Part shown: positions 47,069-56,836 of the stretch, piece by piece
Layout of the letters: the number at the start of each line of letters is the position of its first letter
Position numbering within the stretch: the stretch's first letter is position 1
Sequence record: PQ850617.1
DNA: 64,000 bases
Source of the DNA: Escherichia phage ManiMatter_Bas94
Reading direction: 5' to 3' (one strand)
The notes under the pieces: model-generated
Seen by the model: the letters and a program-made list of their open reading frames with translations, nothing else
Databases searched by the model: none
Told to the model about the DNA's origin: nothing
Program-made: the position numbers and the translations under genes

Positions 47069-47272
47069 TTAGTAGAACGAACGAATTTCATCCCACACTT
47101 GTTCCTGTTCTTTCCTATAAAAAGAAAGTTGGGTCTTGAACATCTCCACTGATGATTCAAAGTTTTTAGATTGTGCAGCTTCAACGAAACGTTCATGTCG
47201 GTTGATTTTGCACCGTAGCATTAAATACTTGGCTTCAAGTCTCCGAAGAGCCTGTCTTTTCTCAAGATTCAC
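47069..47272 (-). CDS. Hypothetical protein
   Basis: 67-aa ORF. Confidence 0.3.
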   Translation of the reverse strand: MNLEKRQALRRLEAKYLMLRCKINRHERFVEAAQSKNFESSVEMFKTQLSFYRKEQEQVWDEIRSFY

Positions 47273-47681
47273 TTTTCAGATACTCTGACCAGTCGCCAGA
47301 TTCAACCAGAACGTCTTGTTCTTCGTCGATGTGATAAATCCAAGCGATAACAGTTTCACCTGAGTCCATCTTAACTGGAATCTGAGTGCGTTGATAGAAA
47401 CTATCTTCAGGGCTACGTTTGTTGTAACCTTCCAGTCGGTCATATGGACCTTCCAGACCTTCTTTGTCAGTAGCAAACACTTCTACACGAACAGGCTTAT
47501 TGTTATTGCTGTGTGCGAGAGAGATGCTTGGGAAGTAGGAACCACCATAACGGAACAGATCAAAGTTGTCTTCAGTCCAACCTTCACCAATTGACTTAGC
47601 ACCAGCTCGGTCATTAACTAAATAGTTAGCTTGACCACGACGAAGAGAACCATAAGTTGCTACGTAAATTACTTCTGACAT
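47262..47681 (-). CDS. AIG2/gamma-glutamyl cyclotransferase-like protein
   Basis: 139 aa; N-terminal VATYGSLRRGQANY resembles GGCT YGSL motif. Confidence 0.55.
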   Translation of the reverse strand: MSEVIYVATYGSLRRGQANYLVNDRAGAKSIGEGWTEDNFDLFRYGGSYFPSISLAHSNNNKPVRVEVFATDKEGLEGPYDRLEGYNKRSPEDSFYQRTQIPVKMDSGETVIAWIYHIDEEQDVLVESGDWSEYLKSES

Positions 47682-47682
47682 T

Positions 47683-47892
47683 TTAAATACCTTTCCAGTC
47701 TTTCATGATGTTTTCAATATAAGCACACTGTTGATCAGTGGCTCCTGTTACAAACACTTCTAACCCCAACTGCTCGCAGAAGGGATTAAGAATTAGTATT
47801 CTGGTTTGTCCATATGAGTGATGCTCTCGGTAGATAACACACCCAGCATCCCATACAGAATCAATGGCTTTACTTAATCTTTCGTGTTTCAT
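47683..47892 (-). CDS. Hypothetical protein
   Basis: 69-aa ORF. Confidence 0.3.
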   Translation of the reverse strand: MKHERLSKAIDSVWDAGCVIYREHHSYGQTRILILNPFCEQLGLEVFVTGATDQQCAYIENIMKDWKGI

Positions 47893-47945
47893 AAAACCTC
47901 CAGTTTATCCGAACTAGCCTCCTCTTTCGAAGAGGCTAAAGCAGA

Positions 47946-48131
47946 TTACTCTGTAATAAAGATTTTAATCACACCACAGATTACTTCATCATTAAAAGAA
48001 GCAACAACTTCTTTATCCTGACAGAACTCTACTTTACCATTATAAGAGTTGAAGTAGTCAGCGTCAATGTCCATTGCTCGCATTTCACCAGCTGCATTGG
48101 TATCTTTAAACAGAACTTTATACTTATTCAC
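47946..48131 (-). CDS. Hypothetical protein
   Basis: 61-aa ORF. Confidence 0.3.
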   Translation of the reverse strand: MNKYKVLFKDTNAAGEMRAMDIDADYFNSYNGKVEFCQDKEVVASFNDEVICGVIKIFITE

Positions 48132-53849: not shown

Positions 53850-53858
53850 GATAACCTC

Positions 53859-54665
53859 TTATGCTACCTGAAGGCGTTTAATCTGCTGGTCCGCTTCTTT
53901 AACGTTATTACCGTTAATGATTTCATGAAGCTTCTCAATCGGAAGGCGAGAGTGCAATGCCATCAGAGTGGACATGTCACACTGCTGAACAACCTTGTCA
54001 ACCTGATCATAAACAAACTTACGGTTTTCACGATCGCTAATCCAGAAGTTAGACAGGGAACGATATTCAATACCATAGTCCTTGTAGCGGATTGCAGATG
54101 CTTTACCGTAGAGTTCTTTACGGCGAGTGTCTTTATCCATAATAACTGCTGGGAGGGATAGGAAGTAGTCACACAGCACACCCAGCATCATCTGAGTTTG
54201 CAGGGTGATATCCAAAGCACCAACTACGCCAAGATGTACGTGACCACCGGCAGTACGAAGCCCCTTATTTTGAGAAGTCGGGGATGGGTTCTTCTGACCA
54301 GTGAAAGCGTTGAAATCAGGAGTACATCCAAAGATGAACGCTGATTCATTGAAAGTCTTCATCTCTTCTTCAGTGAAGATGTGAGAGCTAACACCCGGAG
54401 CTGTTTCCATGTCCAGTTTGTTCAGGACATTATTGGTGAGATCGATACCACGTTGCATGTTGTCATTAAACGCTTCAAAACCACTCTGTGGGTCAATATC
54501 AAACTCAGCCAGTACGTTGTCCTCTTGAAGACGAACATCCTTAGCCAGAGCGATCTTATCGTCCTTAGAACAACCTAACAGACCAGCTACAGAGGTGATG
54601 ATTCCTTTGCTGGTACGAACGAACATTTCCGGATCCGATCCTATTAAGAATTTGCGCTTAGTCAT
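53859..54665 (-). CDS. Second COOH-NH2 ligase-like protein (putative)
   Basis: 268 aa; N-terminal FLIGSDPEMFV; assignment from memory of phage ligase families, unverified. Confidence 0.4.
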   Translation of the reverse strand: MTKRKFLIGSDPEMFVRTSKGIITSVAGLLGCSKDDKIALAKDVRLQEDNVLAEFDIDPQSGFEAFNDNMQRGIDLTNNVLNKLDMETAPGVSSHIFTEEEMKTFNESAFIFGCTPDFNAFTGQKNPSPTSQNKGLRTAGGHVHLGVVGALDITLQTQMMLGVLCDYFLSLPAVIMDKDTRRKELYGKASAIRYKDYGIEYRSLSNFWISDRENRKFVYDQVDKVVQQCDMSTLMALHSRLPIEKLHEIINGNNVKEADQQIKRLQVA

Positions 54666-55629
54666 TGTAATACTCCACTAGTTCAGAAAAGAGAGATGAG
54701 ATTGTGTTACCGATTTCTTCAGGATTAAGACCAGAATCTATTCCAGTACGCTGAATTATTCGTGCTGTAAAGTTTTGTACTGTAATGTTTTCCAACTTAT
54801 TGTCTATTGCTTCACGTTTGTGACCATAACAGTTGGACCAGAGTTTTAACCACTCTGACATTGTTTCATACTCATCCGGATCTTGATCTTTAGCACGAGC
54901 AAATCTTCGTAAGACATCTGTGTTGTGGTTACGAACATAACCATTCTCGTTGTCACCAACACCGAAGGGGTTTTGAACCCATACTTGCTTCGTGTATTCA
55001 TCAGAGTCAACAACCAAAGGAAGGAATGCTGCTGCTGACATATTGTTGTCAATAACAACAGACGTGCTTTCACTACTCCCATTGGAAGCTCCTCGTTGAG
55101 ACCACCTACCAAAGAAGTCACGACCCAACCCAGCTAACAATAGAGCGATGCCAATGCGTTTACGCTTCAGCCACTCTTCCCTGTCTTCAATTCCTTCTGC
55201 TAGGAAATCCATTCCACGATACTGCCCTTCCAAAATGCTACGGAAGAGCATAAGTCCTGTGAAGATTTGATCTGCTGGATGCTCACGGAGGTTGACAGCT
55301 ACGCTATTCGCTGAAGTGATTGTGAATACATCGCGATAGCAAGACATGGAGTTCATAATATCTGCTGTTTCAACCAAGTTCTTTTCAATATAAGATGCAT
55401 CATGACCGTGAAAAGAGTGAGTCCAGTAATTCAGCATCTCCAGTTGCAAGTTGATATCACGGTTGAAGCGTCTATAACGCCCCTCTTCCATGATAACTTC
55501 GCCATTAATATCGCTTACGCATTGGCCTTGCATGTAGTTGTGAATACCGAAGCACCCACGACCTAAGAACTTCTGTTCCCCTAAATCTTGTTGAAGATTC
55601 AGAGGTACGATCGTTGTGGAGATTGACAT
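54658..55629 (-). CDS. Hypothetical protein (cluster member)
   Basis: 323-aa ORF overlapping neighbours. Confidence 0.4.
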   Translation of the reverse strand: MSISTTIVPLNLQQDLGEQKFLGRGCFGIHNYMQGQCVSDINGEVIMEEGRYRRFNRDINLQLEMLNYWTHSFHGHDASYIEKNLVETADIMNSMSCYRDVFTITSANSVAVNLREHPADQIFTGLMLFRSILEGQYRGMDFLAEGIEDREEWLKRKRIGIALLLAGLGRDFFGRWSQRGASNGSSESTSVVIDNNMSAAAFLPLVVDSDEYTKQVWVQNPFGVGDNENGYVRNHNTDVLRRFARAKDQDPDEYETMSEWLKLWSNCYGHKREAIDNKLENITVQNFTARIIQRTGIDSGLNPEEIGNTISSLFSELVEYYND

Positions 55630-55639
55630 AACTAACCTT

Positions 55640-56836
55640 TTATTTTCCTAAAAATAATCCGCTCATAATACCATCCCACTCAGAGGATGGGATCACTGAA
55701 TACTCCGAACTTTGGTCCAGAGTTCCACTACTAAATCGCTGAACAATGTTATAGATGTTGAACAGGTCTTTAGCCTCAGTACGGATACCGTAGACTAATT
55801 TATCAGATGTTCTTTCATCTTTAGATACCCGACGAGCAAAATTAACCAGAAGGTTGTCACATTTAAGCGTTTCTGACCCACTCTCTACCAAATCAGGGTG
55901 CATCACAGGCAAGAACATCGAGTTATTGACTCGCAACTCTGCTGTTTCGTCATTCTCATAATGAATCCACTTAAAGTCTTCATCACGGAAGTGACCACAA
56001 CCATCTCTGTACGACTGCTGACGCCAAGGCACTTGAAATGCTTCAGCGTATTTATCAGCCATGCCGACTGTAAACAGCGACGCTGGGAAGATACAAGCAT
56101 CCCAATCATTACCAACCAGAGTTGCTTTAGTTTCCCCCAAGAGGTTAGTGTAAGTGCTAACCATTCGGGAGTAAATGTAAGCCTGAAGAATTGTCCAGCC
56201 TTCAATCAACCATTTATGAAGGAAGGTTTCAACTTGACTCTCTTCGTCTTCGCAATAGAAGGTTCGGTCTAGCATTAAATAGAACAGACAACGATCAGCA
56301 GGGATGTTCTCAGTTGCTACACCCATAAAACCTTTCTCGTGCCAGCGTAAACAGGAGGGACGATCTTTGTCCACAAATGCTTCCATAGCTTCCAGTACAG
56401 CACGAGGTGAGGTTTGGTATTCAGGGTTTTTACTATTCCAACGATCAATGTTGTTCTTAGGAGGTGTGTCTTCATCTTCATACGAACACCAACTTAAAGC
56501 TTCGGATACATGCTCTGCGTCATGCCAACGTCTAAAACCTAACATCTTCATGTGAGTTCCGGAGTTCCAGATATGCTTGATTTTACACATATCCATCTCT
56601 CGGCTTAACAGGAACTCTTCCCCATCAGCACTACGAACGTTAGCTTCTTCATGCCACACTCGAACGTGCATATTCCACCCATGAGTTGCCTCATACATAT
56701 TAGGGTCGAAGTATTCATATTCGTCGTCATCTTCATCAACGCCACCATTATAGTTGCGAAGCTGAAGGAATCCATAACAAGGAGGGTTAACCGTTAAAAC
56801 ATTACCTTCAGTATCTTCTAATGTTACTGGAAACAT
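55640..56836 (-). CDS. Hypothetical protein (cluster member)
   Basis: 398-aa ORF, acidic, Trp-rich. Confidence 0.4.
   Translation of the reverse strand: MFPVTLEDTEGNVLTVNPPCYGFLQLRNYNGGVDEDDDEYEYFDPNMYEATHGWNMHVRVWHEEANVRSADGEEFLLSREMDMCKIKHIWNSGTHMKMLGFRRWHDAEHVSEALSWCSYEDEDTPPKNNIDRWNSKNPEYQTSPRAVLEAMEAFVDKDRPSCLRWHEKGFMGVATENIPADRCLFYLMLDRTFYCEDEESQVETFLHKWLIEGWTILQAYIYSRMVSTYTNLLGETKATLVGNDWDACIFPASLFTVGMADKYAEAFQVPWRQQSYRDGCGHFRDEDFKWIHYENDETAELRVNNSMFLPVMHPDLVESGSETLKCDNLLVNFARRVSKDERTSDKLVYGIRTEAKDLFNIYNIVQRFSSGTLDQSSEYSVIPSSEWDGIMSGLFLGK

Follow-up and report, generated by a model that had tools for sequence, protein, structure and literature searches.

The gene block at positions 47262–56836 of a 64,000-nt stretch of DNA (the window) from Escherichia phage ManiMatter_Bas94 (PQ850617.1) encodes three ligases, a class II (N-terminal nucleophile, Ntn) glutamine amidotransferase (GATase) and a gamma-glutamyl cyclotransferase (GGCT), together with conserved partner proteins. 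It is a tightly packed minus-strand operon located directly upstream of the primase/helicase gene. Megablast places the window in the Gordonclarkvirinae, podophages of E. coli. Its DNA is 98.9% identical to that of Bas93 (AidaStucki, Kuravirus), 98.5% identical to Bas92 and LAMP and 93–94% identical to 60-odd other Kuravirus genomes. The Bas93 record annotates these genes in matching order. An earlier note on this DNA had described the block as an uncharacterised amidoligase cluster. Every open reading frame (ORF) named there is present at its coordinates on the minus strand, and the small ORFs of 61–82 residues are indeed interleaved between the larger ones. From the upstream end of the operon the features are:

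55640–56836, minus strand: p398, first large gene of the block, divergent paralogue of the phage-only family U (PHROG 13063; hhalign)
54658–55629, minus strand: p323, a member of family U; its stop lies within the COOH-NH2 ligase gene, an overlap of 8 nt with the start of the latter
53859–54665, minus strand: COOH-NH2 ligase type 2 (phiEco32-type, GCS2/glutamine-synthetase superfamily; PF14395, 2.2e-8; PHROG 3815, 2e-118)
53232–53849, minus strand: p205, conserved core partner, beta-rich; overlaps the start of the amidoligase gene by 4 nt
52132–53235, minus strand: Amidoligase_2 (glutamine-synthetase-like carboxylate-amine ligase) with a C-terminal extension (PF12224, 5.8e-8; PHROG 7469, 9e-158)
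52053–52131, minus strand: conserved 79-nt leader before the ATT-started GATase gene, with two predicted hairpins
50022–52052, minus strand: class II (Ntn) GATase-type amidohydrolase (GATase_6, 3.2e-15)
49784–50017, minus strand: DUF7195 small protein of 77 residues (PF23825, 4.7e-17)
49579–49803, minus strand: 74-residue ORF, found in Gordonclarkvirinae-type loci only (cluster fam30; ratio of non-synonymous to synonymous substitution rates, dN/dS, 0.60)
48383–49576, minus strand: ATP-grasp ligase, distantly RimK/MptN/Ddl-like (PHROG 2599, 1e-180)
47683–48376, minus strand: three lineage-specific small ORFs of 82, 61 and 69 residues, with homologues in Gordonclarkvirinae only
47262–47681, minus strand: gamma-glutamyl(amine) cyclotransferase, AIG2/GGACT fold (PF06094, 1.6e-17)

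Intergenic spacing within the block ranges from -20 to +79 nt and the core genes are joined by two start/stop overlaps. No strong terminator was seen inside the block. Judged by this layout, the block is a single transcription unit, in which the genes are translationally coupled in places.

Profile searches place the GGACT/AIG2 protein, the class II GATase, Amidoligase_2 and the COOH-NH2 ligase above their Pfam gathering scores, the ATP-grasp assignment being weaker. The COOH-NH2 ligase scores 34.1 bits against PF14395 (cut-off 25), a family named after phiEco32 ("Phage phiEco32-like COOH.NH2 ligase-type 2"), and has about 30 invariant residues, including D11, E13, E54, R137, H142, H144, E200 and R202, in comparisons of 10–40 diverse sequences. 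The Amidoligase_2 protein scores 33.3 bits against PF12224 (cut-off 22). Its invariant residues in 30 diverse sequences are E31, E33, E35, E58, H95, H97, E119, R130, E186 and R188.

The ATP-grasp protein stays below the Pfam gathering scores (Dala_Dala_lig_C, 3e-3; RimK, 7e-3, 16.5 bits against a cut-off of 21). The assignment is carried by PHROG 2599, by an orthologue from a Proteus phage that clears the Pfam RimK gathering score with 32.9 bits, and by the invariant residues K85, E157, R159, K173, D229, E241 and N243. Five of these, K85, K173, D229, E241 and N243, are invariant in 40 sequences and correspond to the lysine/arginine positions for ATP and the Asp/Glu-x-Asn ligands of Mg2+ that characterize the ATP-grasp superfamily. 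The region aligns with the RimK-type ligase 7qys in a PDB search, and weak matches in Pfam, PDB and NCBIfam are to RimK-family alpha-L-glutamate ligases (RimK, MptN) and to Ddl. Membership of the RimK family itself is not indicated by the curated models (TIGR00768, 32 versus 143.4 bits; NF007764, 26 versus 331 bits). The acidic linker that had been noticed in this protein comprises 15 Asp/Glu within residues 276–320, and the extra C-terminal domain corresponds to residues 316–397 (82 residues, PHROG 20552).

The block encodes three ligases of different folds, each with catalytic-type residues kept in 30–40 diverse homologues; the set is ATP-dependent amide-bond machinery, as had been proposed. 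The description of the whole enzyme set as bond-forming is too wide, since the GGACT protein and the class II GATase are enzymes that instead cleave gamma-glutamyl or glutamine amides.

The GATase gene begins with ATT directly after an in-frame TAG-AAA and was missed by a standard ORF finder; ATT-TGT yields a product starting with (M)CGIV. Bas93 annotates the identical coding sequence of 2031 nt. The Pfam match covers the N-terminal ~235 residues (GATase_6, 56.7 bits, cut-off 27; GATase_7, 30 bits, cut-off 25). In 85 of 87 homologues the catalytic cysteine is encoded immediately after the start codon, and the GlmS-type motifs HSRxAT, NAHP, HNG and DSE align. Behind the catalytic domain (residues 1 to about 235) come a low-complexity linker and a beta-rich region, and then, at residues 440–467, 487–515 and 641–671, three Cys-rich groups. 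A class II Ntn GATase with a Cys-rich tail had therefore been described correctly, except that the Cys-rich modules had been counted as two. CxxC-rich terminal tails are also present on GATase homologues of other lineages. Neither a SIS isomerase domain nor a known synthase domain was found in the 440-residue tail with Pfam and NCBIfam, and scores against the GlmS models TIGR01135 and NF001484 (38.7–44.8 bits) are far from the cut-offs of 381–418. The adjacent amidoligase may be the partner that receives the ammonia released by the GATase.

Many Kuravirus records in GenBank carry the names "L-glutamine-D-fructose-6-phosphate aminotransferase" and "ribosomal protein S6 glutaminyl transferase". 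Both are over-specific and unsupported by curated model scores and domain content. The latter name is unjustified because the scores of 26–32 bits compare with RimK cut-offs from 143 upwards.

Non-ATG starts of the GATase gene recur in unrelated lineages. All E. coli Kuravirus and Suseptimavirus loci use ATT, as do four marine contigs; Pseudomonas phage O4 has ATC and T2S1 has TTG, whereas the other 72 homologues start with ATG (loci L006, L010, L032, L058, L084 and L089 are among those with a non-ATG start; in the window the start codon occupies 52050–52052, minus strand). This recurrence suggests a deliberately weak or IF3-sensitive initiation of the GATase alone. The 79-nt leader upstream of this codon is the largest gap in the operon and is nearly identical in Kuravirus and Suseptimavirus, although the flanking proteins are 65–80% identical. 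Hairpin 1 shows one compensatory change from U-A to C-G, and the leader is not present in the ATG-start relatives L016 and L017. Because the z-score of the fold is just -1.2, a structure of the leader is not established.

The AIG2/GGCT-like protein proposed for 47262–47681 is confirmed by Pfam (64.6 bits against PF06094, cut-off 22.8). Its YGSL motif (Y10, G11, L13) and the catalytic-type glutamate E84 are conserved in 28 sequences. In 33 loci, mostly without GGCT, a protein of the class I GATase fold is encoded upstream of the COOH-NH2 ligase. In Pfam it matches best the gamma-glutamyl hydrolase/PuuD family, Peptidase_C26 (1.9e-23), and its Cys-His-Glu triad is conserved. Of the 52 loci in which the core is complete and the flanks are long enough, 27 have only GGCT, 16 only the C26 protein, one has both and 8 have neither. 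Grouped into 43 lineages at 55% ligase identity, the corresponding numbers are 9, 21, 2 and 11. At 45% ligase identity the two states are mixed within clusters, and GGCT and C26 have therefore been switched repeatedly. The pattern is best explained by non-orthologous displacement, since the two proteins differ in fold and in position within the block and share the reaction class, the cleavage of gamma-glutamyl amides. Thus, the alternation points to a gamma-glutamyl amide as a probable pathway intermediate that is made and later cleaved. Amidoligase_2 and GGCT are also found together repeatedly in Clostridium prophages, which are unrelated (PMC11318856).

Three larger proteins had been left unassigned by the earlier note. 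All are conserved members of the module: p205 belongs to its core, and p323 (323 residues) and p398 (398 residues) are paralogues of each other. A hidden Markov model (HMM) built from eight sequences detects p205 in at least 54 of 90 loci. A full HMMER scan of 1.84 billion representatives found 2,510 clusters of this family, nearly all of them stand-alone proteins of about 200 residues; one is a fusion of p205 with Amidoligase_2, a Rosetta-stone link between the two. The protein is 98% identical in phiEco32 (NC_010324). It is beta-rich, with small SH3/Tudor/KOW-like barrels.

Single-sequence searches detected no homologues of p323 and p398 outside Gordonclarkvirinae, and p398 (dN/dS 0.40) has no match in Pfam or NCBIfam. 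With hhalign, p323 aligns with its positional analogues in Proteus and Aeromonas phages at 95.5% probability, and these align with the marine family f13 at 94% and with their own tandem neighbours (two genes upstream of the ligase) at 95.5%. The neighbours in turn align with p398 at 92%. By this indirect chain of profiles, p323 and p398 are divergent paralogues of one family, here called family U, in which Cys-Phe, Ala-Asp, Arg, Gln and Tyr are invariant. For the positional analogues in LUZ24-like phages (f27 and the gene two upstream) no homology to family U was demonstrable, as they reach at most 56% probability over a short stretch. No relationship of family U, p398, f27 or p205 to the enzyme families of the module was detected with hhalign, and PDB sequence and profile searches gave nothing usable for p205, family U and DUF7195.

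DUF7195 is the sole widely conserved small ORF. It keeps its slot in five phage groups, with orthologues there in phages of Proteus, Aeromonas and Vibrio and in LUZ24-like Pseudomonas phages, and its dN/dS is 0.07. No conserved terminal or acceptor residue is present. For four of the five small ORFs in the block, and for the flanking 67-residue ORF, no homologues were found outside Gordonclarkvirinae. The 69-residue ORF at 47683–47892 (minus strand), between the 61-residue ORF and GGCT, also occurs in NJ01-like phages and is absent from Bas93, Bas92 and LAMP, to which the alignment of the window splits in two pieces at this ORF. The suggestion that the small ORFs are substrate peptides is not supported, with lineage-restricted ORFs, one of them missing from Bas93, and a DUF7195 protein that lacks a conserved terminal or acceptor residue; it was rejected with a reservation for DUF7195. 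The first reading of the block is therefore partly supported: it is right at its core, though broad, and its idea about the small ORFs fails.

Some marine loci encode a different small protein, fam10 (50–110 residues), with a zinc ribbon (CxxC...CxxC) at the N-terminus and a C-terminal tail that is variable and very acidic. In 23 loci it lies directly upstream of the primase/helicase gene, between this gene and the ATP-grasp gene (L026 and marine contigs within L037–L091). It is not present in the window and no link to the module is demonstrable. Fam10 was considered as a LysW-like carrier or a relative of the GATase Cys-rich groups and rejected, the C-termini being variable and significant HMM matches lacking. 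The PADLOC models of anti-phage defence gave 0 matches for ten proteins.

The partner proteins bear on whether the module tags proteins or peptides. In such a scheme a protein of the host or the phage would receive tails of glutamate or glutamyl-amide from the RimK-like ATP-grasp enzyme and the PafA-like glutamine-synthetase-superfamily ligases. The role of adaptor or target would fall to p205, DUF7195 or family U, and GGCT or C26, together with the Ntn enzyme, would shorten the tag or remove it again. RimK, the extender of ribosomal protein S6, is one of the nearest named relatives of the ATP-grasp protein; the beta-barrels, Cys-rich groups and acidic linker look like recognition modules, and the tight translational coupling suggests a complex. 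Against this, no conserved acceptor lysine or glutamate and no conserved C-terminus is present in p205, DUF7195 or family U, the RimK-family score lies far under the curated cut-off (32 versus 143 bits), and GGACT and Peptidase_C26 enzymes are known for small substrates. Tagging is thus unlikely, though it keeps an appreciable share of the probability.

In tblastn searches the COOH-NH2 ligase is found in 306 phage records, 121 from Pseudomonas (mostly LUZ24-like) and 93 from Escherichia; others come from phages of Vibrio, Aeromonas, Proteus, Cronobacter and Salmonella and from Zobellviridae. A pattern scan of IMG/VR found it in at least 564 viral contigs. From 90 diverse viral loci ORFs were called and clustered: 89 contain the COOH-NH2 ligase, 87 the class II GATase, 86 the amidoligase, 78 the ATP-grasp protein, 59 the primase/helicase and 43 GGCT. 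The co-directional order is near-invariant: COOH-NH2 ligase, p205, amidoligase, GATase, (DUF7195 or another small protein), ATP-grasp, (GGCT), with the primase/helicase gene downstream in most loci. Inspection of 100,044 species, one genome each, yielded 25 loci, mostly in metagenome-assembled genomes, with short scaffolds of one isolate in addition. All 12 of these loci that exceed 8.2 kb carry phage-type primase/helicase or polymerase genes, and the shorter fragments contain module genes only. As far as a motif-based scan can show, the module is confined to phages.

This distribution leaves little room for a role in host metabolism, in which a glutathione-like gamma-glutamyl cycle would boost nitrogen or glutathione-type metabolism and the supply of amino acids. 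The enzyme set does resemble GshA, GshB and GGCT. However, the families are phage-exclusive and distant from the enzymes of the host, their NCBIfam scores are well below all cut-offs, the module is not found in the cellular genomes scanned, and four extra conserved proteins in fixed order are not needed for a plain metabolic boost. An eLife paper speculates on nitrogen use for "Phage-ZRK32" from growth effects only, which is indirect evidence (PMC10945688). We consider such auxiliary metabolism very improbable.

Modification of the cell envelope would consist of amidating or extending a peptidoglycan precursor or surface component, for instance to prevent superinfection or to set the time of lysis. 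The amidation of carboxylates in peptidoglycan with nitrogen from glutamine is an established reaction (MurT/GatD and AsnB-type enzymes), and D-Ala-D-Ala ligase is among the weak matches of the ATP-grasp protein. The proposal is repeated by papers that cite Iyer et al. 2009 and credit that work (PMC10580990, PMC11318856). On the other hand, neither a Mur ligase nor any component of membranes, lipid carriers or secretion is kept together with the module in the ~90 loci. The module is found in strictly lytic podophages with short cycles and in viruses of very different hosts with different envelopes, including archaea-associated ones (PMC11706807; titles of metagenome-assembled genomes). Specific support for the envelope and the host nitrogen explanations is little, and the former has a slim chance.

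Comparison of eleven genes with Suseptimavirus ECBP2 gave dN/dS values of 0.07–0.60, which are rough as dS is near saturation. Constraint is tightest for DUF7195, the COOH-NH2 ligase (0.09), p205, the amidoligase and the GATase. As far as such values can tell, the enzymes are under purifying selection. Three of the products, the ATP-grasp protein, the GATase and the AIG2-like protein, have been identified in phage SU10 by mass spectrometry (PMC4281155). The possibility that the genes are decaying remnants without function, which the earlier note had named as a refutation of its reading, is effectively refuted. Nothing that indicates decay was found; the only odd features are that the GATase gene starts with ATT and that the ATP-grasp protein stays below the Pfam thresholds. 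The dN/dS values, the invariant catalytic residues and the proteins detected in SU10 speak against it. Furthermore, the ATT start has been conserved and is seen again in independent lineages, and the module is retained in at least 564 contigs. These are real genes that are expressed and maintained.

The product of the module is possibly a small glutamate-derived amide, a peptide-like metabolite or a modified amine that is made in the infected cell by a complex of these proteins; this is the reading we tentatively prefer. Ligases of the glutamine synthetase/GCS superfamily characteristically activate the gamma-carboxylate of glutamate, class II GATase-fold enzymes bind glutamine or gamma-glutamyl compounds and RimK-family ligases use glutamate. 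In the proposed pathway the proteins would act together as a complex. The two glutamine-synthetase-superfamily ligases would activate the gamma-carboxylate of glutamate as an acyl phosphate, and the activated glutamate would be joined to an amine, or to ammonia freed from glutamine by the GATase. The ligated product would be amidated with nitrogen from glutamine or extended by the ATP-grasp enzyme, which might add a further glutamate or amino-acid unit. GGCT would later cleave the gamma-glutamyl bond to give 5-oxoproline, a role that would be filled by the Peptidase_C26 gamma-glutamyl hydrolase in other phage lineages. The gamma-glutamyl group would thus be a transient handle or activating group, as in PuuA/PuuD, BtrJ/BtrG and EgtA/EgtC. 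The conserved companions in fixed order, p205, DUF7195 and the two family U paralogues, are non-enzymatic or without an assigned role. Each chemical step, the formation of a complex and the small-molecule nature of the product are deduced from sequence.

Several points weigh against a small glutamyl amide. The chemical steps are assigned by family membership, and the placement of Amidoligase_2 and COOH-NH2_lig in the glutamine synthetase/GCS superfamily follows Pfam and Iyer et al.; sequence and profile searches detected no relative of either ligase in the PDB, and hhalign detects no relationship between the two families. The exclusivity of GGCT and C26 spans many lineages but is partly confounded by shared ancestry, which inflates any p-value, and 8 of the 52 complete loci lack both. 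The Cys-rich groups and beta-rich repeats of the GATase, the acidic linker and extra domain of the ATP-grasp protein and the barrels of p205 would suit a macromolecular substrate. The module could instead put a glutamyl or gamma-glutamyl-amide adduct on a macromolecule, either phage DNA or nucleotides or a protein of the replisome or the host, with the beta-barrel and Cys-rich parts binding the target. This would explain the restriction resistance of Gordonclarkvirinae, yet we hold it to be improbable.

The resistance of Gordonclarkvirinae to restriction was reported in the BASEL paper (PMC11990801). It has a bearing on hypermodification of DNA or nucleotides, in which a glutamyl or amide group would be placed on a base or dNTP and thereby account for the resistance. 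The module always adjoins replication genes, and the group is reported to be remarkably resistant to restriction-modification with no modification pathway known (PMC11990801). Sites for EcoRI (12), EcoRV (32), EcoKI (9) and EcoP1 (86) occur in the window at ordinary frequency and are not depleted. Nevertheless, hydroxymethylase, 5-hmdU kinase, aGPT-Pplase, glycosylase or other DNA-acting enzymes are linked to the module in 0 of ~90 loci. Likewise, no Pfam match of the thymidine hypermodification pathway, with its ThyA-like dUMP hydroxymethylase or TET/JBP, 5-hmdU DNA kinase and aGPT-Pplase (Lee et al. 2018/2021), was found in the cluster proteins or among their recurrent neighbours. The window encodes ThyX and dCTP deaminase, an ordinary route to dTMP. 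Phage tf carries genes for an amidoligase and a GATase, and its DNA was cut by HaeIII and sequenced directly (PMC3517423).

The window contains 658 six-base palindromes versus 1070 expected, and at least 12 GC-rich ones are absent. GATC occurs 131 times versus 239 expected and CCWGG only 4 times in the whole window. Such strong palindrome avoidance suggests that the DNA has been exposed to restriction over evolutionary time, which also speaks against hypermodification; we rate it as quite improbable. Avoidance of restriction sites was rejected as a full explanation of the resistance, as the sites of the tested systems are present despite it.

Elsewhere in the window, a 451-residue "nucleotidyltransferase" (43404–44759, minus strand; PHROG 12715) is encoded beside the dCTP deaminase gene and has no match in Pfam or NCBIfam. 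Its SU10 orthologue was called class II CCA-adding-enzyme-like (PMC4281155), and the BASEL authors suspect a role in DNA modification (PMC11990801). A stand-alone protein of 118 residues (39244–39600, minus strand) is made up of a single domain, the NAD+-binding Nlig-Ia domain from the N-terminus of NAD-dependent DNA ligases (Pfam, 2.5e-35); its Bas93 counterpart of 357 nt is annotated "DNA ligase". A 187-residue protein (40797–41360, minus strand) has a ferritin-like domain (Pfam, 2.8e-7), and the Bas93 gene at the matching position is annotated "DNA binding protein".

The module is among the more widespread phage-only enzyme sets and is present in LUZ24-like Pseudomonas phages and in E. coli Kuravirus isolated for phage therapy. 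Three ligases and two gamma-glutamyl-cleaving enzymes in fixed order by replisome genes argue for a reaction that lytic phages need and hosts cannot supply. Knowledge of the product would reveal a new phage-made metabolite or modification and might explain the restriction resistance of Gordonclarkvirinae. Genetics and metabolomics are now practical, because the window is 98.9% identical to Bas93, whose host is an E. coli K-12 derivative in which the O16 O-antigen has been restored.

Comparison with known systems begins with phiEco32. The region is the phiEco32 amidoligase cluster in its archetypal form (Iyer et al. 2009) and as such already known as a computational prediction, reportedly made by Iyer, Abhiman, Burroughs and Aravind in Mol BioSyst. 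COOH-NH2_lig (PF14395), Amidoligase_2 (PF12224), ATP-grasp, class II GATase and AIG2/GGCT lie together in one co-directional phage cluster. The enzyme set is that of phiEco32, the order is shared with phiEco32-like genomes, and the window is 93–99% identical in DNA to Kuravirus records. This very cluster is the archetype already in print and so does not count as a new discovery. The present survey adds p205, DUF7195, family U, the alternation of GGCT and C26 and the restriction to phages, part of which may be in the 2009 paper already. Papers that mention these genes all go back to that study and repeat its suggestions of cell-wall modification and superinfection exclusion, secondary metabolites and peptide tags (PMC10580990, PMC11706807, PMC11318856), and genome papers on LUZ24-like phages list the genes without function. 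No biochemical or genetic characterisation of the module was found in a full-text literature search. The earlier statement that phage clusters of this kind had only been predicted computationally is borne out by the restatements and the one indirect growth experiment found there.

The ATP-grasp protein has the fold and the Mg/ATP residues of RimK and MptN/CofF, its best named matches in PDB and NCBIfam, but scores 26–32 bits versus cut-offs of 143–350 and possesses the additional acidic linker and C-terminal domain. With GlmS the phage GATase has in common the N-terminal class II GATase domain with Cys1 and the motifs, whereas SIS domains are lacking and the C-terminal 440 residues are unrelated (beta-rich and Cys-rich). 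PafA and Dop belong to a carboxylate-amine ligase superfamily that acts on the gamma-carboxylate of glutamate, and pupylation is a possible model for protein tagging. In glutathione synthesis and the gamma-glutamyl cycle a GCS-type ligase, an ATP-grasp enzyme and a gamma-glutamyl cyclotransferase are likewise combined. The phage module differs in its additional amidoligase, GATase and four proteins, in having no family match to GshA or GshB and in being phage-only.

A parallel in logic is provided by pathways with a gamma-glutamyl handle (PuuA/PuuD, BtrJ/BtrG, EgtA/EgtC and GmaS/N-methylglutamate synthase), in which a ligase of the GS/GCS type or of the ATP-grasp type forms a gamma-glutamyl amide and another enzyme later removes the glutamyl group. 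PuuA/PuuD acts on putrescine, BtrJ/BtrG in the formation of butirosin and EgtA/EgtC in that of ergothioneine. The handle is removed by a class I GATase/C26 hydrolase, a class II GATase-fold amidohydrolase or a GGCT-fold enzyme. At the level of sequence the phage proteins are no members of these pathways (EgtC model, 20.9 versus 218 bits; no PuuA or GmaS match in NCBIfam). All four enzyme types of the handle pathways nevertheless occur in the phage module or its variants, which differs from them by its three ligases and four additional conserved proteins.

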